This document shows positions 2,756 through 33,388 of a stretch of 64,000 nt of DNA, in pieces; position 1 is the stretch's first letter; each line of letters opens with the position of its first letter. Under the pieces are notes generated by a model, which searched no databases, was not told the DNA's origin, and saw nothing but the letters and a program-made list of their open reading frames with translations. Both the position numbers and the translations under genes were made by a program. This stretch comes from an uncultured virus (IMG/VR IMGVR_UViG_3300025867_000015) (Duplodnaviria; Heunggongvirae; Uroviricota; Caudoviricetes). The DNA lies in the IMG/VR virus record IMGVR_UViG_3300025867_000015, positions 1 through 64,000 of that record; one strand, given 5' to 3'.

Positions 2756-4426
2756 TTATGAATTTAATTGAGAATCGACGTATTTCAAACACTCTCTCGT
2801 TATAGGATTACTATTTATAGACTTTCTCATATCAGGAGTAACACCATTTTCAAATTTATCAAATGGATTTTGAACACCTGTTTCTTCTTCACTTGTCATT
2901 TCATCAACCATTTGATTTTGTTCTTCTCCGCCATACATCTTCATCTGTTGTGATTGTAAATATACACTATTTAATATAGTATCCTTTTTAGGATCTAATT
3001 TACGTCCCATTTCCTTTTCAAAAGCTGCTTCTAATGGCATCATACCTGCATCTAATTTCTTCTTTGTAATATCTACCACAACCTCTTCATCTTCCCTATC
3101 TATACCTGTAAATATAAATTCATACTCTCTATCAAGTTCTGATACAATAGACTTAGTATAATTCTTTTCTAAGAACAATAACAAAGGTTTTAACCCCTTA
3201 TGTTTACTATGTTTTAATCTCTCCTTCTGACCATCCTGACCAAATATCTGAGCCTGTTCTTTAAATGAATAGCCTAACTCACTAGGGTCAATAGTGAATG
3301 TACTAAATATCATAACCATCAAAAACTCCATCCACTGTTGAAACTCCATATCTCTATTATTCATCTGTAAATCCACCCACTCTAAATCTATACCTGAAAA
3401 AATAGGGATTTTATGTGAATTATTTACTCCAGCTAACATCTGTCGCCATGTCTGTCTAAAATCATTCAAAATATCCATATTCACATCATTACTCTTTATA
3501 TTCACAAATCCCTTTGGGTTACTTCCTTGTTTAAAGAAGTTACCGTTGTATTGCATACCCCACAAGGCCCAAGTAATAATATCTAACAAGATCTCTATCT
3601 CAGATGTACCATAACCATTCTTTTCAAGTGCTGTGGAACGATTCCTCTGATCATACATTAACTCCCATGGATAAAAGACTATTTCTTCATTAGTCTTAAA
3701 ATTACGCATTATATTACTCTGATATACCTGGCCATAACGAGGTAAATATCCAAACATTTCATTATATTTCTGCTTAGCCTGTTCTGTAAATCTTGGATCA
3801 ATAGTTTCTAATAATCTTATGGTTGATGCATCTATAGCATTATAGCCAATAAGTTCAAATCTATAATTTCTCTCACACTCAGCAGCTATCTGATCATAAC
3901 TCAGAGAATCTTTTAATATTTTTGCAGTAAAATTATGCAAATCATCAGTAATATCCCACTTACTCTTTACTCCCCCATTATCTAAAAAATTAACAATATA
4001 CTCAATTTTCTTCTTTTCTTCATCAGTCAATTCTTTCTTTTTACCATCATCAAATAAACTCTTCTTTTTTCTTATAGTATACCCTTCTTCTTGTTCATTC
4101 TGAGTAAATCTTAAGAAATTCTGAACCTGAGCTATACGAGTTGTAATTACCTGACTAATAATAGGAGTATCAGCTACTTTCTTTAAAATATCAAAGGATA
4201 CACGTTTCCTTTGCTGCTTATATCCACCTGTTGCTGAGTAAGCCTCAAATGGATCGAACAAAAACGAACGTATATCCTTCTTTTTACTTCTTGACTCCTG
4301 TAAGTAATTCTGAGCTTTAAATATAGCATCAGGGTCATTAGAACGTAAATCTGACTCCAACCTCAAATTTCTTTCAATTTGAAGTTTAGCTATTTGTTCA
4401 TCATACTCTCTGATTTTATCACTCAT
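2756..4426 (-). CDS. Phage portal protein
   Basis: 556 aa with portal-like motifs YGTSEIE, NGNFFKQGSNPKG, DMEFQQW, IDPSELG, KGLKPLL. Confidence 0.9.
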   Translation of the reverse strand: MSDKIREYDEQIAKLQIERNLRLESDLRSNDPDAIFKAQNYLQESRSKKKDIRSFLFDPFEAYSATGGYKQQRKRVSFDILKKVADTPIISQVITTRIAQVQNFLRFTQNEQEEGYTIRKKKSLFDDGKKKELTDEEKKKIEYIVNFLDNGGVKSKWDITDDLHNFTAKILKDSLSYDQIAAECERNYRFELIGYNAIDASTIRLLETIDPRFTEQAKQKYNEMFGYLPRYGQVYQSNIMRNFKTNEEIVFYPWELMYDQRNRSTALEKNGYGTSEIEILLDIITWALWGMQYNGNFFKQGSNPKGFVNIKSNDVNMDILNDFRQTWRQMLAGVNNSHKIPIFSGIDLEWVDLQMNNRDMEFQQWMEFLMVMIFSTFTIDPSELGYSFKEQAQIFGQDGQKERLKHSKHKGLKPLLLFLEKNYTKSIVSELDREYEFIFTGIDREDEEVVVDITKKKLDAGMMPLEAAFEKEMGRKLDPKKDTILNSVYLQSQQMKMYGGEEQNQMVDEMTSEEETGVQNPFDKFENGVTPDMRKSINSNPITRECLKYVDSQLNS

Positions 4427-7799: not shown

Positions 7800-8511
7800 C
7801 TCTTATCAAATAAATAAAGGGTTAGTGTTAATTCTTCAAAATCATTATCAATCTCTCTTACTTTCTTTTCAACATAATTTTTATCTTGTATTTCTTGAAG
7901 TAATGATAACAAAATATTATTATATTTTAGTTTCTCATAATCTGGTCTGCCCACTATCATTTTATTATACTTTAAATATCTATTACTACTACTTATCTTA
8001 ATCACATTACTCATATTTATTACAATATGAGAATCATCAGGTAATCTTACATACCCAAACTTCTTTAAAATTTTTTCAACTATCTTCATATCAATAGGGA
8101 GTTTAATTTTTCTGAATAAGCATTATCAATCTCCATATACCAACCAAAATCTTCTTCATCATCAACAAATAATTCACAAAATCTATCCATCATAACACAT
8201 ACCATATCTAAATGGATTAGAGATGTACAACTGTTAACTATCTTCAACAGTTTATTCTTAGCTGCCAATTTCTTTTCTTTTGAAATTCTTTTCATATCAA
8301 CCCTTTCTTAATCATATCTAATCTGACTTGCCACCAAGTATAATAATAATTAGGAGCATTAAACAATTTATTCAAATTTACCATTAAAATGGCTTCCCAA
8401 TATTTCTTCATTTTATGATATTTTTTCATATTCTATTTTAACGCCATAAAATTAATAAAAATAAATATAACTTTTATATTTATCATTAATTTTTATTCAT
8501 TATAAATAAGA

Positions 8512-8540
8512 AGGGTGGTCTATCTTAGACAGGCCACCCT
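8512..8540 (-). terminator. Hairpin / intrinsic terminator closing the tmRNA coding piece
   Basis: Minus strand AGGGTGGCCTG-TCTAAGA-TAGACCACCCT followed by TCTTATTT. Confidence 0.65.
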
Positions 8541-8668
8541 AATCAGAAATAAAATTCAGCTTATGCAGCTAATCTCATTTCCTGTTTTTGTGTAAAGATG
8601 TTGCCATCTATTTTGCACTGTTATATCTCTTTTATCCACAACTTATGCTGTCTAAACCAGTCAGCCCC
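8512..8668 (-). ncRNA. ssrA: tmRNA coding piece (permuted two-piece tmRNA); tag (A)GNIFTQKQEMRLAA*
   Basis: Starts GGGGCTGACTGGTTTAGAC (5' acceptor strand plus D-loop analogue). Tag frame 8605..8561 follows AAAATAGAT and ends LAA-stop within the hairpin TTAGCT-GCATA-AGCTGA. Confidence 0.92.
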
Positions 8669-8676
8669 TAATAAGA

Positions 8677-8810
8677 AGATAATAAACGATCACCTGGCAT
8701 CATCTGGTGGGTATAAAAAAATATAAAAAACCACCTCTCCCTGGATTATGGGTTACTTCTTGGATCAAACTTTCCTCAGTTCTTCTCGAGAACAACATCG
8801 TTTATTATCT
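8677..8810 (-). ncRNA. Unassigned structured RNA within the tmRNA intervening segment
   Basis: Perfect 14-bp closing stem (8677-8690 with 8797-8810) and internal hairpins GTTCT/AGAAC and GGTGG/CCACC. Confidence 0.6.
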
Positions 8811-8840
8811 GTTCACCGATTACGCATTAGGCGAATTATG

Positions 8841-8906
8841 TGGAGCTGCGGGGAATCGAACCCCGGTCCAAACATAGTTACAAATAACGTCAACAATATA
8901 ACAATA
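8841..8906 (-). ncRNA. ssrA: tmRNA acceptor piece
   Basis: GGAC-CGGGGTTCGATTCCCCG-CAGCTCC-A gives the T-arm and 3' acceptor strand, pairing with GGGGCTG including G3.U70. CCA is not encoded. It lies upstream of the 5' piece. Confidence 0.92.
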
Positions 8907-8908
8907 TC

Positions 8909-8920
8909 TTCAAAGAACTT
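8909..8920 (-). promoter_or_regulatory. boxA-like motif AAGTTCTTTGAA (copy 1)
   Basis: Exact 12-mer also at 9651-9662 and 9913-9924; each copy lies just 5' of an RNA gene. Confidence 0.55.
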
Positions 8921-8944
8921 TACTAATCACTTTATTTAAAAATC

Positions 8945-9262
8945 CTAAAGTGATTCGAATTCTTCTTCCAAATGCTTAATCTCTCTCTCAAAAATCCTTG
9001 CAATACGAATAGCACATTCTTGAATCTCTTCAACTACTTTCTTTTTTAATTCTTCAGATATACCATTAGCAGTCCCAAAATTATCAGATGTATATTCTTT
9101 CCCACCTTCTTTAGTCACAACAACTGTCTGAATACTTAAAGAACAGTCCTTAACTAAAGAACATGTCTCATCCCTGAAAGAAACTGATGCTCGAATTCTA
9201 TTCTTATAGTCATCAATAGTCTTCTTTAATTCATTAGCTTTTTCTAATTTATCTGTTGTCAT
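8945..9262 (-). CDS. Hypothetical protein
   Basis: Start moved to the ATG at 9262 (MTTDKLEKANELK), because the upstream GTG lies in the structured RNA. Confidence 0.6.
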   Translation of the reverse strand: MTTDKLEKANELKKTIDDYKNRIRASVSFRDETCSLVKDCSLSIQTVVVTKEGGKEYTSDNFGTANGISEELKKKVVEEIQECAIRIARIFEREIKHLEEEFESL

Positions 9263-9276
9263 AATATTTGTTTTAT

Positions 9277-9645
9277 CACCCTCTATCTTCAGACTCACTG
9301 AAATTTATTCCACGTATCTCTTACGAGAGTAGTAGGGTCATGCTGAGAACTCATTCGTGTTGGATATGCCATTTTTACATATCAAGAATTGAATCATGGT
9401 ATCCTTTCTCAAGGGAACAACACGTATAGGATTACTCCATTGATGTTTTTACGCCTACAACTCCTATCAGCATTTCTGCCATCGTATGTTGCATATTCAA
9501 CATCCTGTCAATTCAGGATTATCATCTTTATGTGAATCTATCTGCCAGTTTTAGCTTACTTACAAGCGACATGCGCATGACACAGATAATTACTATTGTG
9601 AGATAGTTTTATTCACAAAGGATCAATGTTTAGCCAAAGATTTTC
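9277..9645 (-). ncRNA. Large, multi-pseudoknot structured RNA (about 370 nt), family unassigned
   Basis: ORF-free and GC-richer than its flanks, with more than 10 complementary segment pairs and GNRA-capped hairpins (CTT-GAGA-AAG, TCTC-GTAA-GAGA). Confidence 0.75.
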
Positions 9646-9650
9646 AATTA

Positions 9651-9662
9651 TTCAAAGAACTT
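9651..9662 (-). promoter_or_regulatory. boxA-like motif (copy 2)
   Basis: AAGTTCTTTGAA on the minus strand. Confidence 0.55.
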
Positions 9663-9673
9663 TAGTCCTTTAA

Positions 9674-9914
9674 AAATTCCTGACCGTTATGCCTACGGAA
9701 TAATACATTAACCTCTGTGATACATATCTGAGTCTAATCTACAGTCTGCTACCCACCGTCGGTTGCGCCGAGCATCTGGACAACTGAATATGTAACACTT
9801 TGTCAACTTTTATCTATCCACAAACAACGACCTTTGCAAGAGGTCTAATTATAACTTTTGACTATATGTCGTACCAAGCAGGCTCTATAATTTGTTTGCT
9901 TCAATCAGGAATTT
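9674..9914 (-). ncRNA. Structured RNA (about 240 nt) with a 13-bp terminal stem, family unassigned
   Basis: AAATTCCTGATTG/CGGTCAGGAATTT closing helix; internal GCAAACAA/TTGTTTGT, GACCT/AGGTC and TCGG-CGCAA-CCGA. Confidence 0.7.
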
Positions 9915-9924
9915 CAAAGAACTT
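9913..9924 (-). promoter_or_regulatory. boxA-like motif (copy 3)
   Basis: AAGTTCTTTGAA between tRNA-Leu and the 240-nt RNA. Confidence 0.55.
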
Positions 9925-9930
9925 ATTTTG

Positions 9931-10015
9931 TAGTCTGAGCCAGAGTCGAACTGGCACACTCGCTATGAGTAATAGATTTTAAGTCTATCGTGTCTACCAA
10001 TTTCACCATCAGACC
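9931..10015 (-). tRNA. tRNA-Leu(UAA)
   Basis: GGTCTGA/TCAGACT-A acceptor, ATAGA-CTTAAAA-TCTAT anticodon arm, long variable arm, GTTCGA T-loop. Confidence 0.95.
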
Positions 10016-10196
10016 AGATAACTTTGCATTATGTGCTTCAATCTCCTTTTTCCTCTTTATAAAATCTGCCATACTCAATTTGTCTAATTCTTCTTTATTA
10101 ATTTTCATAACTCGTCATCTACTTCAATAGGATCGACACTTGAAAATGCACCAATTACCAGTGCAACGAATACAACTATTGTCAACATTGCTTCCA

Positions 10197-10436
10197 TTAC
10201 ATTACTCCTTCCTGATTTTTAACAAAGAAATGATCGACATTAAAGTAGTTGTAACCCTGTTTGTTCAACTGATTGCAAACCATGTTTACAATATTATACA
10301 GTTGCTTAATAGAACTTCCTTTCTTATGAGCCTCTCTGACTCTGGTTATCATCACCGATTCTTGTTGATACATTGACAGATTGTTCTTTGGGTTGGCAAA
10401 CTGTCCAATTTTCAGTAATTCATCACTTAGTAACAT
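10197..10436 (-). CDS. Small hypothetical (early-region) protein
   Basis: 79 aa, preceded by the conserved ATTCAAACAATAATTAAAAA leader. Confidence 0.55.
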   Translation of the reverse strand: MLLSDELLKIGQFANPKNNLSMYQQESVMITRVREAHKKGSSIKQLYNIVNMVCNQLNKQGYNYFNVDHFFVKNQEGVM

Positions 10437-10521
10437 GATCTTAACTTTTTAATTATTGTTTGAATAAATGATGTTTTATAGTTATCACCTACGCTGCAAA
10501 ACTTTTCAGAAAACACAGATT

Positions 10522-10770
10522 TTAAAAACACAATGACTGTGCAAACACGACTATTTCAATAGGGGCTTGTGTCGATGGAGTAGGGTTTGATCCGCTCCAA
10601 AATTGGTTATAAGGTAACCCGGCTTGCTTTATAGCTTTTGTAATTGCGGCATAACCAACTACACACCAACCTTTACTTGGAATCTTATTTCTTCTGGTAC
10701 AAGGGTCGAAAGTTTTTCCTGAAAATTTCTCTTTAAGTACTGCGGCTAAATCATTGATTGTTGTTTTCAT
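10522..10770 (-). CDS. Small hypothetical (early-region) protein
   Basis: 82 aa, preceded by the same leader. Confidence 0.55.
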   Translation of the reverse strand: MKTTINDLAAVLKEKFSGKTFDPCTRRNKIPSKGWCVVGYAAITKAIKQAGLPYNQFWSGSNPTPSTQAPIEIVVFAQSLCF

Positions 10771-11015: not shown

Positions 11016-11110
11016 TTTAACACGGTAAAATTAATATAATAATTAACACAAACAAAATTTTTGGTCAATTATTTTTAAAAATATCCTTAATTTATAATGA
11101 TTATAAATAA
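11016..11110 (-). promoter_or_regulatory. Repeated promoter module (TTTG-N19-TAATTTTA plus upstream 19-bp palindrome), copy A
   Basis: 92/95 nt identical to 32948..33042; resembles the Bacteroidota -33/-7 promoter. Confidence 0.75.
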
Positions 11111-13361: not shown

Positions 13362-14561
13362 CTACCCACCCACAGCAAAGCTGATGGGTTGGGCTTCGGA
13401 CTTCGTAGATAGTTGAGTATTACTACTTCTTACACCATCTCCATCCGTGTTTTCGACAGTTCCTGCCGAGTTTAATATTTTTAATCCTTCTTTAAAAATG
13501 TTCTTTGCTGCATTAAGGTCACGGTCTAATACGTGTCCATTTTTGCAAGTCCATTCTCTTATTGAAAGATTTAAGTCTTGATTTATCCAACCGCACTCAC
13601 AACAGGTTTTTGAACTTGGATACCAGCGATTGATTTTAACAATTTGTTTGTCATTCCAATTTGCTTTGTATTCAAGTAATCTTACAAAAGTTCCCCAACT
13701 GGCATCTGATATATGTTTTGCAAGTTTATGGTTTTTGACCATACCTTTCACATTCAAATCTTCTAATGCGATTATATCATAATCAGTTACCAATTTGTGA
13801 GATACCTTGTGTAAGTTATCCATTCGTGAGTTGGTTATCTTCTCGTAAATTAAGGCTGTTTTTCGTCTTTGTTTTTCAAACGAATTACTACCCTTTACTT
13901 TACGAGAAAGATGTTTTTGTGCTTTCGCTAACTCTTTTTCATATTGTTTTGTGTATTTGTTGTTCTTGAATTTGACACCATCAGAAGTAATAGCAAAGTC
14001 TTTTAAACCTAAATCTATTCCACAAACAGCACCAGTCTTTTCTTTTGGTTGATATTGTTCTTCTGATAGTATTGATACGAAATATTTTCCTGTTGGTGTT
14101 TTGCTCAAAGTGCATTTACCAATTTCCCCTTTAACTTCACGGTGAACATTTACTTTAATACCTTCTTTGAATTTTGGTGCAAAAAATCTACCAACTTCAA
14201 GTTTTGCGAACTGTGGAACTGTGAATGAGTTTTTCTTTTTCCTTGACTTAAATTGTGGAAACTTAGCGTTACCTCTAAAGAAGTTTACGTAAGCAGTATC
14301 CAAACATCTTAAAGCAAATTGTAATGATTGGCTATTCACTTCTTTGAGCCAAGCAGTTTCTTCTTTCTTTTTTAGTTCGGTTAATGTAGCAGCCTGTTTA
14401 TAGTAACTATCAGACTTTTTATCTGCTTGATATTGCTCTTTTCTTTCATTTAAAAAGTGATTGAACACAAACCGAACACAACCAAAATGCTTATCCAACA
14501 ACACTTTTTGCTCTTGTGTTGGCTGCAATTCAAATTGATATGTCCGAAAAATTGTCTTCAT
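13362..14561 (-). CDS. tnpB: RNA-guided endonuclease TnpB
   Basis: N-terminal HTH (FGCVRFVFN), RuvC D/E/D residues in GIDLG, LEDL and DRDLNAA, Zn-finger SSKTCCECG. Confidence 0.95.
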   Translation of the reverse strand: MKTIFRTYQFELQPTQEQKVLLDKHFGCVRFVFNHFLNERKEQYQADKKSDSYYKQAATLTELKKKEETAWLKEVNSQSLQFALRCLDTAYVNFFRGNAKFPQFKSRKKKNSFTVPQFAKLEVGRFFAPKFKEGIKVNVHREVKGEIGKCTLSKTPTGKYFVSILSEEQYQPKEKTGAVCGIDLGLKDFAITSDGVKFKNNKYTKQYEKELAKAQKHLSRKVKGSNSFEKQRRKTALIYEKITNSRMDNLHKVSHKLVTDYDIIALEDLNVKGMVKNHKLAKHISDASWGTFVRLLEYKANWNDKQIVKINRWYPSSKTCCECGWINQDLNLSIREWTCKNGHVLDRDLNAAKNIFKEGLKILNSAGTVENTDGDGVRSSNTQLSTKSEAQPISFAVGG

Positions 14562-17954: not shown

Positions 17955-18026
17955 TAAAATTAATATAATAATTAATACAAACAAAATTTATTTTTAATTT
18001 ATCATTAATTTATAATGATTATAAAT
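17955..18026 (-). promoter_or_regulatory. Promoter module with 19-bp palindrome
   Basis: TAATTTTA box at 17955-17962; ATTTATAATGATTATAAAT at 18008-18026. Confidence 0.65.
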
Positions 18027-18472
18027 AATTATTCTCTCAAAAAATGTTCTCTAATGGTTGTTCTACCATTTTCAACAGAAGATGTTATAACACTTTTCAT
18101 CTTCTTTTCTTTAGCTTTCAACCTCTCTAAAACCTTTAAAGCCTCTAACCTATTATTCTTATTAAGTGTGCCTAATCCAATTTCATTGTTTGCCATAAAT
18201 AATGTATTTAATTATTATTTTTATTTTATATAATTATACAAAATTAAATATCCCAGTCATCCATATCAAAATAAATCTGTTCAACTATATTTTCAATTTC
18301 TATCTTAGTTTTATTTATATCTCCTATTATTGAAAATATTAAATCAATTAATAACAACTCTTCATCACCATCTGTTTTATATTCTCTCAACGTCACACTA
18401 TTCAATGATTTTTCTATTAAATCACAAATTTTTTGTTTTTGTTCTTCTGTAAGATTCATATTTAATTATTAT

Positions 18473-21925: not shown

Positions 21926-22259
21926 TGTTTTTAGCCATTTTTTCAGAATCCAATATAACTATCATTACACCACCTTTTGGTTGAAGTAATATAGGTATCT
22001 GATTTCTATTAACGAAATAACTATACAAAAATCCTTTATACTTACTACTTAAATGACTTACCAGTTCAGTAAACTTCTCAGTAGTAACACCTATCAAAAT
22101 TGGTTTTATTCTATAATCTTTATGTTCCTTCATAAAAATCAACTGTGCTCTCAAATGTTCAACAATATCTTCTTTAGATATCAAATATTCTTTAAACACC
22201 TCATCATTAGAAATGTCTACAACGTTCTCTCTTTGATTAATTATATAATATTTATTCAT
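21918..22259 (-). CDS. Hypothetical protein
   Basis: Likely ATG at 22259 (MNKYYII), overlapping the groEL stop. Confidence 0.5.
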   Translation of the reverse strand: MNKYYIINQRENVVDISNDEVFKEYLISKEDIVEHLRAQLIFMKEHKDYRIKPILIGVTTEKFTELVSHLSSKYKGFLYSYFVNRNQIPILLQPKGGVMIVILDSEKMAKNND

Positions 22260-23844
22260 CTTTCTCTTCTCCAACATTATAAATAGTATAAGAAGTAGTA
22301 AGTAATAATCCAGCAACTGAAGCTGCATTCTCTAAAGCAACTCTGGTTACTTTTACGGGATCAATTATACCAGTATCAAAAAACATCTCATATTTATCAT
22401 TATAAACATTATATCCTGTATCATATACTTTAGGATCAACATTTATTATGCTATGCATAATCACATCTACAGGCAAGCCAGCATTCTTCATTATAACTTT
22501 AAAAGGCTCTTCTATAGCTTTACGTATAATTTCTATACCTAATCTTTCATCATAATTATCATATTCACAATCATCTAAACTTTTAATACAACGTAATAAT
22601 GCTACACCTCCGCCAGGAACTATTCCTTCTTGAATAGCTGCTCTAGTAGCATTAAGAGCATCTTCATATCTGTCTTTTTTCTCCTTCATTTCAACTTCAC
22701 TTATACCACCTACATAAATTATCACTACTCCACCAATTAACTTTGCTTTCCTTTCACGTAACTTTTCTGCATCATATTCACTAGGAGCCAATTTTATATG
22801 TTCATCTATTAATTCTACCCTTTGTTTTATTTCCTCCGTGTCTCCTTTGCCATCAATAATAACTGTATCATTTGCAGTAATTATAACCTTACTCGCTTTA
22901 CCAAGAGTATCAAATGTGACTTCTTCCAAATTATAACCAGTATTTTCTTCATATACGAAACCACCTGTTAAAATTGCAATATCTTGCATTATATCTTTTC
23001 TCATTGCTCCATATGATGGAGATTTAACAGCAGCTACTTGCACCACATTCTTGACCTTATTCATAATTAAAATCTGGGTAGCCTCCAAATCCAAATCATC
23101 AACAATAATAAGTAAAGGTCTCTTTTCTTTAATAGCTATTTCTAATGACTGTATTAAATCTCTAGCTAATGATACTCTTTTATTTATCAAAAATATCAGG
23201 GGATTATCAAATACAACTTCCATTCTAACAGTATCTGTAACAAAATAAGGGGATAAAAATCCTTTATCAAATTTCATACCTTTTGTAACTTCAATCTCTG
23301 TGTCTATACCAGATGCTTCTTGTATTGAAATAATACCATCTTTAGATGCTTTTGAAACAGCATGAAAAATACCTTCACCAATTTCTTCATCACCATTTGC
23401 TGATACTGTAGCTACTCTTCTGATATTATTAGTATCATCATTCTTAACCGCTATACTTTTCAAATAATCAATAACAACTTTAACTGCTTTATCAATACCT
23501 CTTTTTAAGAAGATAGGATTAGAACCAGATTCAACATATTTCATCCCTGAATTAAGAATAGCAGCAGCAAGAACTGTAGCTGTAGTTGTACCATCACCTG
23601 CAATTTCATTAGTCTTATGAGCTACATCTTTTATTAGCCTTGCTCCCATATTTTCTACTCTATCAGTAAGAGTAATTGAACGAGCAACTGTAACGCCATC
23701 CTTAGTAATAGTAGGTGACATATATCCATTATCAATAATCACATTTCTCCCTTTAGCTCCTAGAGTACTACCTACTGCATCAGCTAATTTATTTACACCA
23801 ATACGAAGTTTTTTAGTATCAATAGTTATTTCTTGTGTTTGCAT
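22252..23844 (-). CDS. groEL: Chaperonin GroEL (phage-encoded)
   Basis: TLGAKGRNV, ITKDGVTVA, AGDGTTTATVLA, GIVPGGGVAL, IIDPVKVTR; no GGM tail. Confidence 0.97.
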   Translation of the reverse strand: MQTQEITIDTKKLRIGVNKLADAVGSTLGAKGRNVIIDNGYMSPTITKDGVTVARSITLTDRVENMGARLIKDVAHKTNEIAGDGTTTATVLAAAILNSGMKYVESGSNPIFLKRGIDKAVKVVIDYLKSIAVKNDDTNNIRRVATVSANGDEEIGEGIFHAVSKASKDGIISIQEASGIDTEIEVTKGMKFDKGFLSPYFVTDTVRMEVVFDNPLIFLINKRVSLARDLIQSLEIAIKEKRPLLIIVDDLDLEATQILIMNKVKNVVQVAAVKSPSYGAMRKDIMQDIAILTGGFVYEENTGYNLEEVTFDTLGKASKVIITANDTVIIDGKGDTEEIKQRVELIDEHIKLAPSEYDAEKLRERKAKLIGGVVIIYVGGISEVEMKEKKDRYEDALNATRAAIQEGIVPGGGVALLRCIKSLDDCEYDNYDERLGIEIIRKAIEEPFKVIMKNAGLPVDVIMHSIINVDPKVYDTGYNVYNDKYEMFFDTGIIDPVKVTRVALENAASVAGLLLTTSYTIYNVGEEKDE

Positions 23845-24659: not shown

Positions 24660-24762
24660 CTGTTTTTCTTTCTGTTAATTAATACCATTGTTTATTTTAA
24701 TTGGAACAATAAAATTATAAAAAATCTAAATACGAATATAATTTATCATTAATTTATAAACA

Positions 24763-26433
24763 TTATAAATAAGAACCTATAAGATTATACAAGTATCTAT
24801 TGTTATTATCTGATTCCACACCCTTATTAACACTACTAGTAATTTTATCTTTCTGTAAAATAATGTCCCAAATTTTTATATCTATAGTATTATTGCCTAG
24901 CATAAAATAAACACCAATACTATTCTTTTGCCCACTACGTTCTAATCTAGAAATAACCTGTTCTATATCAGTAGGACGCCAAGGCAATTCATAAATCAAC
25001 ATATTAGAAGAAATATTCTGCAAACCATCTATCCCAAATCCACCTGTTAAAATATTCATTATTAAAATACGTTTATCATTAGTCTGAAAATCATCAATTA
25101 TATTTTGACGTTTCTTTTGACTTACTTCTCCTATAATATAATCACATTTAAACTTCCTGGATAATTCTTTTATAATATCTGTATGTATACCAAACAAAAC
25201 AATTTTCTCATTAGATGACTCTAAAAAATCTTCAACCCATTCTACTATATTTGATATCTTACCAATAGCTGATAAATATGACAATGAATTTATCTTAACA
25301 ATAGTTTCTGCAAGTAAAGCAGATTCAGCTTTAATATTACCCATATTCTCTCTAACATATTCGATAAAATCATTATTTGCATGTTTATACTCTTTCATAT
25401 TATCAATATCAACACTCAACACAGTTTCAACTCTATTAGGTAGGTCGGGTAATGCTTCTTTCTTATCAACACGATAATAACAATATTTTTTAAGTATAGT
25501 ATTTAATTCTAATGTATTAGTTGCCCCTGAGTAATTCAAACCAAATGGTGACATATATGCTCCACAGTATCTATCAATAAAATAATTCCAGTTAAAAATA
25601 TCACTAAATTGATCTAATAAATTCAATTGATTTATAACCTCTGATGGCCTGTTCATAATAAGTGTGCCAGTAAGAAAAAATCTATAATCAATATTCTTAG
25701 ATAATTTTCTTACAGATTTAGATCTTATGGTTTTACTAGATTTTAAGTTATGTGATTCATCACAAATTATTGATTTAAATCTTATATTTAATAATTCTTT
25801 ATATTTTATATCAATCTTTACTTTGTCATCTTCTTCTTTCTTATTACCCAGTGAACCATAAGTAAATATTAATACATCAGAGTTAAAATCAATTTTATTA
25901 TTCTCCAAAACTGATATTAATCTATTTTTATTAACAAATTTCCATTGTCTTTCCCAATAATATTTAACTGAAGTAGGAGATATCACTATACATGGGAATA
26001 AATTCTCAGTTTCAACAGCCATAATAGACATAAAAGTCTTACCAGTTCCCATATCACTACCATTAATACACCTTTTAGCATATAACATATAAACAATACC
26101 ATTAAATTGATAATCTCTAACGAGCCAAGGTAACTTCAACTCTTCTATTTTCCGTTCTAACATGTCTATCTTTTGTTCTAATAAAAGATCTATATTTTCA
26201 AGTAAATATGTGTTCCAATCACAATCGCTATTATTAGAACAAAGAATTCCAAATTTTAAAATCAAATCTTCAATATCATCTTTATTTATCAAATTAATAG
26301 GGCAATACCAAATATGATTTATTGCATCATATTTTCTGCCTCTAATATTTTTAATAGAGGTGATGAAGTTAATATCATAATCAGTTTTAAAACTAATTAG
26401 GTGATGTCTTATTGTATATTCTTTTAATGACAT
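24763..26433 (-). CDS. SNF2-family helicase (HARP/SMARCAL1-like)
   Basis: DMGTGKT, CDESH, LTGT, SRLERSGQ; N-terminal HARP-like segment. Confidence 0.88.
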   Translation of the reverse strand: MSLKEYTIRHHLISFKTDYDINFITSIKNIRGRKYDAINHIWYCPINLINKDDIEDLILKFGILCSNNSDCDWNTYLLENIDLLLEQKIDMLERKIEELKLPWLVRDYQFNGIVYMLYAKRCINGSDMGTGKTFMSIMAVETENLFPCIVISPTSVKYYWERQWKFVNKNRLISVLENNKIDFNSDVLIFTYGSLGNKKEEDDKVKIDIKYKELLNIRFKSIICDESHNLKSSKTIRSKSVRKLSKNIDYRFFLTGTLIMNRPSEVINQLNLLDQFSDIFNWNYFIDRYCGAYMSPFGLNYSGATNTLELNTILKKYCYYRVDKKEALPDLPNRVETVLSVDIDNMKEYKHANNDFIEYVRENMGNIKAESALLAETIVKINSLSYLSAIGKISNIVEWVEDFLESSNEKIVLFGIHTDIIKELSRKFKCDYIIGEVSQKKRQNIIDDFQTNDKRILIMNILTGGFGIDGLQNISSNMLIYELPWRPTDIEQVISRLERSGQKNSIGVYFMLGNNTIDIKIWDIILQKDKITSSVNKGVESDNNNRYLYNLIGSYL

Positions 26434-31287: not shown

Positions 31288-31305
31288 GATCTTAGTTTTT
31301 ACTTG

Positions 31306-31378
31306 TGACCCCGGTAGGATTCGAACCTACGACCCGCAGCTTAGAAGGCTGCTGCTCTATCCACTGAGACGAGAGACC
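31306..31378 (-). tRNA. tRNA-Arg(UCU) with atypical 5' segment
   Basis: GCAGC-CTTCTAA-GCTGC anticodon arm and GTAGG-TTCGAAT-CCTAC T-arm are canonical; positions 7-10 read TCGT instead of the usual GTAG. Confidence 0.8.
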
Positions 31379-32947: not shown

Positions 32948-33042
32948 TTTAACACGGTAAAATTAATATAATAATTAACACAAACAAAATTATTAATCAA
33001 TTATTTTTAAAAATATCCTTAATTTATAATGATTATAAATAA
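32948..33042 (-). promoter_or_regulatory. Repeated promoter module, copy B
   Basis: Near-identical to 11016..11110. Confidence 0.75.
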
Positions 33043-33388
33043 GGGATATTGATTATTATATTAACTATCAATTAAATAACACTATCATAACCTTTAAACC
33101 ATATCCATTTTAAATCACTAAAAACAAAATTTTGTATAGGTATCTCCATCATCTTTTGAGACAAAGTTAAATCTCCTACACTAAATCCATTAGAAAAACT
33201 TCCCAATGCTTGTATTACTCCATTAATACATCTTCCCTTCACAAAATTATCATGTATATGATTAGAAGGGTTAGCTGGTTTAAATTCTTCAATCAAATAA
33301 CAATAATCTTTATCATCAACATCGTGAATCACTAAAATAGTTTTACCTACTTTATTAATAATGTACTGTAAAGAATCTTGATCCTGTA

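Follow-up and report, generated by a model that had tools for sequence, protein, structure and literature searches.

Phages are known to carry tRNA genes and sometimes a tmRNA, and little has been explored of how they get long blocks of untranslated RNA transcribed or of which further stable RNAs they deliver. GOLLD and ROOL, large and ornate RNAs of no known function that phages carry among tRNA genes, can be likened to one of the RNAs described below. In bacterial rrn operons, the boxA element, the NusB-S10 antitermination complex and the RNase III leader-trailer helices have established roles, as described in PMC10250234. Two-piece (permuted) tmRNAs of phages have already been published, for example that of the OM43 phage Melnitz (PMC9004378), and Rfam holds them as the family tmRNA_permuted, RF04321 (PMC11915505). 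The Cellulophaga crAss-like phage phi14:2 was reported to make an abundant 'long non-coding RNA' at the g004-g005 junction, which persists late in infection while early mRNAs fall; the preprint's account of this RNA gives it no structure, family or function (Drobysheva et al., bioRxiv 10.1101/2020.03.07.982082).

Here, we have analysed a window of 64,000 nucleotides from an uncultured sewage-sludge phage (IMGVR_UViG_3300025867_000015, positions 1 to 64,000) and showed that it contains an RNA-gene island of ~1.5 kb (8512..10015) with all its elements on the minus strand (Table 1). The initial annotation, made from the sequence alone, had listed a tRNA-Leu, two RNAs of 240 and 370 nt (here RNA1 and RNA2), a small ORF, the two pieces of a tmRNA enclosing a third RNA, interspersed copies of a motif and a terminator, and this order is borne out. 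The island combines repeated copies of the rRNA boxA of the host phylum with a leader-trailer helix of the rRNA type, a tmRNA and two RNA families that Rfam does not contain. We argue that it forms the untranslated end of a transcription unit of the phage, laid out as an rRNA operon in miniature with boxA-led cassettes, an explanation that we consider fairly probable. The host would belong to the Bacteroidota, judging solely from the motif, the relatives and MAG labels.

Table 1. Features of the RNA-gene island and its downstream border (window coordinates)
Feature	Position	Strand	Basis
tRNA-Leu, anticodon UAA, no encoded CCA	9930..10015	-	ARAGORN; Rfam RF00005, 56.6 bits vs cut-off 29
boxA copy 1; also 5' strand of RNA1 leader-trailer helix	9913..9924	-	Exact motif; matches Bacteroidota rRNA leader boxA
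RNA1, ~250 nt	9663..9912	-	11 unique family members; RNA contigs; no Rfam match
boxA copy 2, ahead of RNA2	9651..9662	-	Exact motif
RNA2, ~370 nt	9272..9640	-	Homology; covariation; RNA contigs; no Rfam match
Small ORF, 105 aa	8945..9262	-	ORF listing; no family
boxA copy 3, 8 nt ahead of tmRNA	8909..8920	-	Exact motif
tmRNA acceptor piece, T-arm + 3' acceptor strand	8841..8900	-	Rfam RF04321 alignment
tmRNA intervening sequence, closed by 14-bp stem	8669..8840	-	Insert in Rfam alignment; fold
tmRNA coding piece	8561..8668	-	ARAGORN; Rfam
Terminator-like hairpin + U-rich tail	8512..8541	-	By eye from sequence
Promoter-like AT-rich repeat of next unit	8446..8512	-	5 copies in genome, aligned

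The stretch 9925-9270 is free of genes, with several kinds of stop codon in all six frames. A hidden gene under another genetic code was rejected, as TAA, TAG and TGA are all present in the three sense frames. Rfam (v15), searched at E up to 10 with RNase P, group I intron, 6S, GOLLD and ROOL included, gave eight weak matches and none inside 9925-9270, and the whole island matched cultured phages only at their tRNA-Leu genes. The small ORF has no PHROG match and no similarity to gp010 of phi14:2; it has one 36%-identical relative, which lies without RNA genes nearby, and it seems to be missing from a DNA variant (joint 8920 to 9282). The promoter-like repeat of the next unit has a further copy upstream of the island, at 11073-11110, so that one copy stands upstream and one just past the terminal hairpin, and none within the island itself. 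The terminator scan did not call the hairpin at 8541-8512.

Of the three RNAs that had been called unassigned and structured, RNA1 and RNA2 are genuine RNA genes with relatives, while the supposed 134-nt RNA is the spacer of the tmRNA (~171 nt, 8840-8669, as read off the Rfam alignment). Structure is shown only through the relatives of RNA1 and RNA2 and not by the island sequence itself: the fold z-scores of the three candidates (-1.67, -0.57 and -1.34) come from single-sequence folding and are of no help as evidence of structure.

Both translation-related genes proposed in the initial annotation were recovered by dedicated tools. The tRNA forms a cloverleaf scoring above the curated Rfam cut-off, and ARAGORN reads it as tRNA-Leu(taa). 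The tmRNA was called 'tmRNA*' by ARAGORN and matched RF04321 at 62.3 bits (cut-off 47) over the full model (1-213, 8900-8561), with the T-arm and 3' acceptor strand placed ahead of the 5' acceptor strand, as in permuted tmRNAs, and a tag frame (8605-8561) that reads GNIFTQKQEMRLAA followed by a stop, with the hydrophobic tail -LAA. It resembles the Melnitz-type permuted tmRNAs in its order of acceptor piece, spacer and coding piece, in its -LAA tag end and in scoring above the Rfam cut-off; it differs from them in coming from a Bacteroidota-type sludge phage and in having a boxA ahead of it. One RNA-library contig holds the acceptor piece together with the spacer at depth 4-5, and we propose that the mature product would be two-piece, with the spacer discarded. 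Its nearest relatives are tmRNAs of other uncultured phages (L131 and L252). In the diverged L131, a tRNA is followed by GTTCTTTGAA and then by a permuted tmRNA, as in the window. The tmRNA acceptor pattern was found at 118 IMG/VR loci, mostly host ssrA ends of prophages, none of which has an RNA1 or RNA2 homologue.

The 12-base motif AAGTTCTTTGAA occurs, as had been noticed, in three exact copies, which lie on the same strand 8-15 nt before the bodies of RNA1, RNA2 and the tmRNA. With at most one mismatch it has eight matches in the window (1.41 expected), a number reached in 0 of 100 shuffles. The identification of the motif as the Bacteroidota rRNA boxA itself, rather than as merely boxA-like, came from a comparison with nine sampled Bacteroidota rRNA loci: GTTCTTTGA is located 84-143 nt before the 16S gene in seven and within the 16S-23S spacer in eight, while the reversed control is found in 0/9 leaders and 0/9 spacers. 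The phage 13-mer is exact in one Bacteroidota 16S leader. The letters thus equal the rRNA boxA of the presumed host group and precede untranslated stable-RNA genes, as an rrn-type boxA does. The likeness extends to position, since the Bacteroidota boxA adjoins the foot of the 16S leader-trailer helix and a boxA of the island stands at the foot of a long helix bracketing a stable RNA, in a unit that is likewise untranslated and includes a tRNA. Unlike an rrn operon, the island is phage-borne and without rRNA, repeats boxA ahead of each small cassette, places boxA inside the helix in RNA1, and has a leader-trailer helix in only one of three cassettes.

The boxA is not a general feature upstream of RNA2 relatives, where it was found within 170 nt in three loci only (L147, L168 and L239). 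Its 14-mer lies near tRNA genes in 3 of 116 sampled IMG/VR loci, not significantly different from 0 of 120 for the reversed control, and four Bacteroidota-type MAGs show no enrichment of its 11-mer. A search for the motif combined with a T-arm was discarded, as it returned three foreign loci, about the chance number by a rough estimate. In a literature search that covered its sources in part, we found no published boxA in phage tRNA/ncRNA operons and no RNA2 family beyond the phi14:2 remark.

RNA1 belongs to a new family with few members (11 unique sequences) and is composed of a closing helix, a variable hairpin, an invariant anticodon-arm-like hairpin (9845-9829) and a long arm. Its closing helix is a 22-bp leader-trailer helix that starts in boxA copy 1, which pairs with 9687-9663 at -26.4 kcal/mol, a value matched by 0 of 300 shuffled leaders. 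In 10 relatives, too, the motif is paired with the 3' flank by RNAalifold. In the family, 95.9% of the cells are paired and 11 are compensatory (0/500 shuffles), all in the closing helix, where five pairs are changed on both sides in a helix above the 17 bp set as the minimum for a leader-trailer (RNase III) helix; these figures come from only 10 sequences, from which the structure itself had been derived. The best corresponding duplexes of RNA2 (-19.0 kcal/mol, 20/300 shuffled leaders as good) and of the tmRNA (-13.6 kcal/mol, 93/300) are not significant. Taken together, boxA identity and the RNA1 leader-trailer helix support the claimed analogy with an rRNA operon at the level of sequence. 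Once the trailer is made, the boxA of RNA1 is buried in the helix, and copy 2, as read from the sequence, is also able to pair locally with the RNA1 trailer. The relatives L256 and L257/L261 keep the helix with changed boxA letters, and in these it may be the pairing rather than Nus binding that was selected. RNA1 alone found nothing credible in cultured phages, and a profile search of 635 loci and the window gave only one extra weak copy.

RNA2 belongs to a much larger family. It is homologous to the 'lncRNA' of phi14:2 (E 7e-4 database-wide, 8.7e-18 pairwise), with conserved blocks and helices common to RNA2 and phi14:2 2905-3589. A two-block pattern finds at least 113 IMG/VR loci and an independent 5'-block pattern at least 120; 89 of the 92 unique sequences are less than 90% identical to each other, and their sizes range from 190 to 512 nt. 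Misalignment of the variable regions left RNAalifold with only two helices on the trimmed alignment, and the core was therefore defined by hand, which biases the covariation test towards that core. In the 37 pairs so defined, 90.0% of the cells pair (77.1% in shuffles, 38-50% in slid controls) and 309 are compensatory (71.6 in shuffles); none of the five measures was attained in any of 500 shuffles. Covariation, one of the checks suggested in the initial annotation, is thus strong for RNA2, next to the compensatory changes in the closing helix of RNA1. A pseudoknot between a hairpin loop and the strand after helix 2 is suggestive only: in an independently retrieved set the changes are mostly pair-compatible, with one compensatory sequence and five incompatible terminal changes.

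RNase P RNA, group I introns and 6S RNA were considered for RNA2 on a weak likeness of motifs and were rejected, as no model matched; a permuted group I intron was a further candidate. A chromosomal bacterial RNA was also rejected, since 185,579 species genomes hold six loci, all in MAG contigs. The phi14:2 homologue gave only a chance-level snoRNA match in Rfam (E 0.93). RNA2 differs from GOLLD and ROOL in being smaller and in matching no Rfam family at E up to 10, and no conserved protein partner of it was found. In phi14:2, too, small ORF(s) and, beyond them, a tmRNA lie behind the homologue, and the RNA is very abundant in both phages, as the preprint reports for phi14:2. The two loci differ in that the tmRNA is one-piece there and permuted in the window and the intervening ORFs are unrelated; moreover, the window's phage is not crAss-like by its genes.

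The abundance of RNA2 was seen when RNA runs were searched as contigs, so that all depths given here are contig-level values without information on ends, strand or single transcripts. Exact-match RNA2 contigs occur in three sludge metatranscriptomes at depths of 553, 322, 218 and 370; in the same data the depth is 4-5 for the tmRNA, 2.4 for the small ORF and 0 for the flanking protein genes, whereas a DNA run covers these protein genes at depth 2-14. RNA-library contigs cover RNA1 at 9665-9846 with depth 35-44. Neighbouring RNAs of the island therefore differ 10- to 100-fold in depth, which fits differing stability and also separate promoters. One RNA contig (8891-9116) bridges the small ORF, boxA copy 3 and the start of the tmRNA; none among the contigs searched joins RNA1 to RNA2 in exact form. 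Some parts of the island are not covered by RNA contigs in these runs, a gap that is given no weight here.

How the island could be expressed is suggested by this arrangement. Transcription would start, probably, at the promoter-like repeat near 11100, cross a few small ORFs and then run through ~1.5 kb that is almost untranslated. Each cassette (RNA1; RNA2 with the small ORF; the tmRNA) is led by an exact host-phylum rRNA boxA, and the nascent boxA would bring in the antitermination complex NusB-S10 of the host, which would keep Rho from stopping RNA polymerase on untranslated RNA. The tRNA and tmRNA could be released by the usual tRNA-end enzymes, and RNA1 could be cut out through its 22-bp helix, boxA copy 1 included, a likely RNase III substrate. 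The expected products are a tRNA-Leu serving the AT-rich codons of the phage, the two-piece tmRNA freed of its spacer, RNA1 as a four-way-junction RNA with the invariant anticodon-arm-like hairpin, and RNA2 as a very stable, pseudoknotted RNA ~100-fold over its neighbours. We infer co-transcription, Nus recruitment and the processing enzymes from the sequence and its known counterparts.

The motif copies could instead be junction scars of exchangeable RNA-gene cassettes, left by recombination sites or by target duplication at an RNA1 insertion, and not working antitermination signals. Two identical 12-mers do flank RNA1, and in a variant from a DNA run, a single contig of depth 7.7 with the joint 9635 to 9912, RNA1 and motif 2 are replaced by 11 different letters between the tRNA-Leu and motif on one side and RNA2 on the other. 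RNA-library contigs likewise join RNA1 (1 difference in 182 nt) to unlike sequence, and modules are combined differently in relatives: L260 has the first variable hairpin of RNA1 and not the second, and L252 has RNA1 without RNA2. A scar, however, leaves unexplained why the motif is the host rRNA boxA; the motif is also kept ahead of the tmRNA in the diverged relative, and copy 2 does not adjoin the end of the RNA1 helix, from which it is separated by 13 nt. We consider it unlikely that the copies are scars instead of signals, while noting that both readings can hold, because cassettes would also be exchanged more readily if they had boxA copies in common.

The depth differences between neighbouring RNAs, together with the motif ending 8-15 nt before each conserved RNA body, would also be expected if the RNAs were independent genes, each with its own promoter, and the motif were part of a promoter or a start mark. 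This is improbable, as in the RNA1 family the motif is part of the transcript and of a helix with compensatory changes, a sigma-70-type scan gave 15 sites against 14.7 in shuffles, and the recurrent promoter-like repeat of the phage is absent from the island. Less credible still, with very little probability in our judgement, is that RNA2 is a cis-acting leader (a riboswitch-like attenuator or translation element) of the following ORF and not a free RNA. In 20 of 33 loci, the start of an ORF of at least 40 aa does lie no more than 150 nt from the 3' block of RNA2, and a terminated leader would far exceed its ORF in abundance, as seen in the contig depths. Yet the downstream ORFs are unrelated across loci except for three pairs (the window's ORF with a near-identical relative, and two others), a tmRNA follows instead in 12 of 80 loci (with an Rfam match in eight of ten checked), and the RNA of phi14:2 is reported to outlast the early mRNAs. 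Among these readings, we favour the boxA-led, rRNA-operon-like unit.

What RNA1 and RNA2 do is a guess: they might act on host translation or on the tRNA apparatus. It is conceivable, at a low probability, that RNA2 represents a new class of large, pseudoknotted, extremely abundant phage RNA that acts jointly with the tRNAs and tmRNA of the phage on the translation apparatus of the host, for instance by docking on tRNA/tmRNA elbows or ribosomes, or as a ribozyme, that the anticodon-arm mimic of RNA1, in its rRNA-style helix, is a decoy for a host enzyme targeting tRNA anticodon loops, and that both are delivered via rRNA antitermination and processing hijacked through repeated boxA. The island had been put forward as an undescribed system. 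That is true in part: a homologue of RNA2 is in print as an abundant phi14:2 transcript, and so are two-piece tmRNAs of phages, while RNA1 and RNA2 match no Rfam family, the check on which the novelty had been made to depend. The RNA2 family is widespread in uncultured phages, and few phage transcripts are more abundant, both in sludge metatranscriptomes and in the one cultured relative. As this relative, phi14:2 on Cellulophaga baltica, carries its RNA2 homologue near a tmRNA, the function of RNA2 is directly testable at the bench.

The genes of the island are solid. Its opening tRNA-Leu(UAA) and its permuted tmRNA, both proposed in the initial annotation, are each called by ARAGORN and by Rfam, the latter gene scoring above the Rfam cut-off and encoding the tag GNIFTQKQEMRLAA* (ARAGORN). 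The order tRNA, motif, permuted tmRNA is also found in a diverged relative (L131). Between the tRNA and the small ORF, all six frames are shut by several kinds of stop, and an Rfam search of this interval at E up to 10 gave no match; single-sequence fold z-scores are unremarkable (−1.67, −0.57 and −1.34). Three unassigned RNAs had been proposed for the island, and two of them, RNA1 and RNA2, proved to be families with relatives. The third, a separate "134-nt RNA", was rejected: in the Rfam alignment it corresponds to the ∼171-nt insert, closed by a 14-bp stem, that separates the two tmRNA pieces. Genes for permuted tmRNAs normally contain such an intervening sequence. Two-piece tmRNAs of phages are published; the cited part of a survey of 18,146 genomes, 402 of them tmRNA-encoding phage genomes, gives 53 among 133 unique tmRNA structures (PMC9004378).

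Coordinates of the island genes, motif copies, repeats and other features in the window
Feature	Position	Strand	Evidence
tRNA-Leu(UAA)	10015-9930	minus	ARAGORN; Rfam 56.6 bits
Motif AAGTTCTTTGAA, copy 1	9924-9913	minus	exact match
RNA1	9912-9663	minus	
Motif, copy 2	9662-9651	minus	exact match
RNA2	9640-9272	minus	
Small ORF	9262-8945	minus	
Motif, copy 3	8920-8909	minus	exact match
Permuted tmRNA	8900-8561	minus	ARAGORN; Rfam tmRNA_permuted 62.3 bits (cut-off 47)
Insert between tmRNA pieces	8840-8669	minus	Rfam alignment, fold
AT-rich repeat	8446-8512	minus	alignment
AT-rich repeat (upstream of island)	11073-11110	minus	alignment
AT-rich repeat	17965-18028	minus	alignment
AT-rich repeat	24709-24775	minus	alignment
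AT-rich repeat	33005-33043	minus	alignment
399-aa ORF	13362-14561	minus	phrog_506 'transposase', E 5e-133
GroEL, full length	22252-23844	minus	phrog_5725, E 1e-149
tRNA-Arg(UCU)	31305-31378	minus	ARAGORN, Rfam

RNA2 dominates the island in metatranscriptomes. Contigs from three metatranscriptome runs of sludge and from a DNA run were aligned to 7800-10700; contigs show presence and neither ends nor strand. Depth in the RNA runs was 0 over the flanking protein genes (2-14 in the DNA run), 2.4 over the ORF, 4-5 over the tmRNA and 35-44 over RNA1, while exact-match contigs of RNA2 had depths of 553, 322, 218 and 370. Numerous further contigs have ∼40-nt blocks in common with RNA2, the sequence between them differing, and they raise its summed depth to 9232 and 6982. 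Such common blocks with unlike sequence between are the signature of a family.

A two-block pattern retrieved 113 RNA2 loci from IMG/VR and only six, each in a MAG and four of them labelled Bacteroidota, from 185,579 species genomes; an independent 5'-block pattern gave at least 120 loci. The family is diverse: of 92 unique sequences, 89 have pairwise identities below 90%. From a MAFFT alignment of 83 sequences we defined by hand a core of 37 pairs, 33 of which show changes on both sides. Core cells are paired in 90.0% of cases (77.1% in shuffles), and 38-50% pair when the 3' partners are slid by 1-3 columns. Covariation among homologues, the check suggested in the initial annotation, is borne out: compensatory cells number 309, compared with 71.6 for shuffles, and none of 500 shuffles equalled any of five measures. 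The two blocks are invariant by construction, being part of the search pattern; in an independently retrieved set they were, among the matches listed, exact in 76/97 and 55/97 and absent in 14/97. The few block changes in that set mostly fit a putative loop-to-strand pseudoknot, with one compensatory case, which is suggestive only.

RNA2 alone matches Cellulophaga phage phi14:2 at 3018-3151 (E 7e-4), and pairwise comparison extends this to 200 nt with six blocks in common (E 8.7e-18). According to the cited part of Drobysheva et al. (bioRxiv 10.1101/2020.03.07.982082), phi14:2 has two long intergenic regions whose transcription exceeds that of most protein genes, at the earliest time point and from then on. 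We found that the second is a one-piece tmRNA lacking annotation (3514-3985 of our locus, GenBank KC821624 4031-4502), called by ARAGORN with the tag GSSVQKLAMVA* and scoring 46 bits in Rfam (cut-off 47; E 3.9e-16). The order RNA2, small ORF(s), tmRNA is therefore common to both phages, and the ORFs in between are unrelated. As far as that part of Drobysheva et al. goes, the published record of RNA2 is only an unnamed transcript; searches at the level of listings found no paper on the family.

Of the 80 loci having 1.8-kb flanks, 12 have a same-strand tmRNA 3' of RNA2 (ARAGORN; Rfam confirmed 8 of the 10 submitted), a tRNA-like T-loop ends 16-19 nt ahead of the RNA2 5' block in 5/73 loci, and the ORFs behind RNA2 are unrelated when loci are compared. 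RNA2 thus stands as a phage RNA gene in its own right, often amid tRNA and tmRNA genes. Separately, about ten loci have a conserved element just 5' of RNA2 (e.g. L143, L149, L162, L163, L176), and five (L142, L154, L161, L201, L248) carry a tRNA-like 5' half 4-40 nt past the 3' block, which neither ARAGORN nor Rfam calls.

The motif preceding RNA1, RNA2 and the tmRNA had been described as boxA-like. Allowing up to one mismatch, AAGTTCTTTGAA has eight matches against 1.41 expected, a number attained in none of 100 shuffles. For comparison, 15 genomes were sampled from the phylum of a Bacteroidales MAG bearing an RNA2 relative, nine of which yielded a 16S locus. GTTCTTTGA occurs 84-143 nt 5' of 16S in seven of these nine loci and within the 16S-23S spacer in eight; the reversed word occurs in neither leader nor spacer (0/9 each), and the phage 13-mer is exact in one 16S leader. 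Such placement indicates that the phage motif is the rRNA boxA of the presumed host phylum, an identity that we regard as solid on sequence comparison. In the sampled operons, the bases immediately 3' of boxA pair with the spacer just past 16S and so form the leader-trailer helix that has been described for rrn operons (PMC10250234, part cited).

The RNA1 cassette repeats this boxA-plus-helix arrangement. Relatives, sought with a 20-mer from its invariant core, came from four viral and nine metagenome loci (the near-identical relative of the phage being included in each count), giving 11 unique sequences with the window. Common to all of them are a motif-like leader, closing stem, variable hairpin, invariant core of ∼37 nt, second variable region and conserved 3' strand. 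Within the core, a 5-bp hairpin carries an anticodon-like loop of 7 nt. In RNAalifold, the boxA-like motif pairs with the 3' flank and runs on into the closing stem. The leader helix in the window spans 22 bp (−26.4 kcal/mol), and none of 300 shuffled leaders was as good. Cells are paired in 95.9% of cases, and all 11 compensatory cells (0/500 shuffles) fall in the 22-bp closing helix, in a small sample whose structure was drawn from the same sequences; the inner helices are invariant and uninformative on covariation. Motif letters and trailer are altered together in two relatives. One metagenome contig (L258) has, beside a full RNA1, a second, diverged copy at 1054-1230 on the minus strand (nhmmer E 7e-10).

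The proposed likeness to an rRNA operon is supported in sequence by boxA and the RNA1 helix; for RNA2 and the tmRNA, comparison with shuffled leaders gave no significant leader-trailer helix. This result, the rarity of boxA 5' of other RNA2 relatives, and the motif 14-mer adjoining tRNA genes in only 3/116 sampled loci (0/120 for the reversed control) count against a general rule. Searches at the level of listings found no paper on boxA in phage RNA operons. In two RNA2 relatives, a boxA-like word also occurs on the sense strand inside the optional stem of the RNA (L198 ∼1900, L236 ∼400). In two other phage tRNA arrays, minus-strand units run from T-arm through 3' acceptor strand, short loop and 5' acceptor strand to D-arm (L010 ∼2560-2410; L011 2563-2440 and 2400-2290); stem-bracketed and directly 3' of the boxA motif, they look like circularly permuted tRNA-like genes, without a call by ARAGORN or Rfam.

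Modules are reassorted from one relative to another: in L252, tRNA, motif, RNA1, membrane ORF and permuted tmRNA occur without RNA2, and a DNA-run variant has tRNA-Leu, motif and RNA2 without RNA1.

The source record is a 76.5-kb linear IMG/VR virus (∼70% complete), of which the window is most, with G+C of ∼30% and nearly all genes on the minus strand. Its PHROG matches include portal, large terminase, DnaE-type DNA polymerase, ribonucleotide reductase, GroEL, NAD ligase, UvsX, SbcCD and DnaB, and it is therefore a tailed phage. A 94-kb contig is near-identical (99.4%), and the stretch is present in activated-sludge and wastewater runs. Its GroEL is full length, its second tRNA is distant from the island, and its phrog_506-matching ORF looks like an IS605/TnpB-type gene.

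How might the island be expressed? A ∼35-nt AT-rich repeat has five genomic copies, all in intergenic gaps; one lies upstream of the island, another immediately past the terminal hairpin and none inside, and it also stands 3' of the tmRNA terminator in L252. This repeat is probably the phage's own promoter. A sigma-70-type scan gave no excess of promoter-like sites, a terminator scan did not call the terminal hairpin, and a single RNA contig runs from the ORF across boxA copy 3 into the start of the tmRNA. We lean towards a reading in which the island would be the untranslated tail of a single transcription unit; boxA would recruit Nus factors and so protect it from Rho, and the transcript would then be processed into separate RNAs. 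The protection and processing are steps that we infer. What is new is the combination in one island, the abundance in metatranscriptomes, the RNA1 family, and boxA as part of the RNA1 helix.
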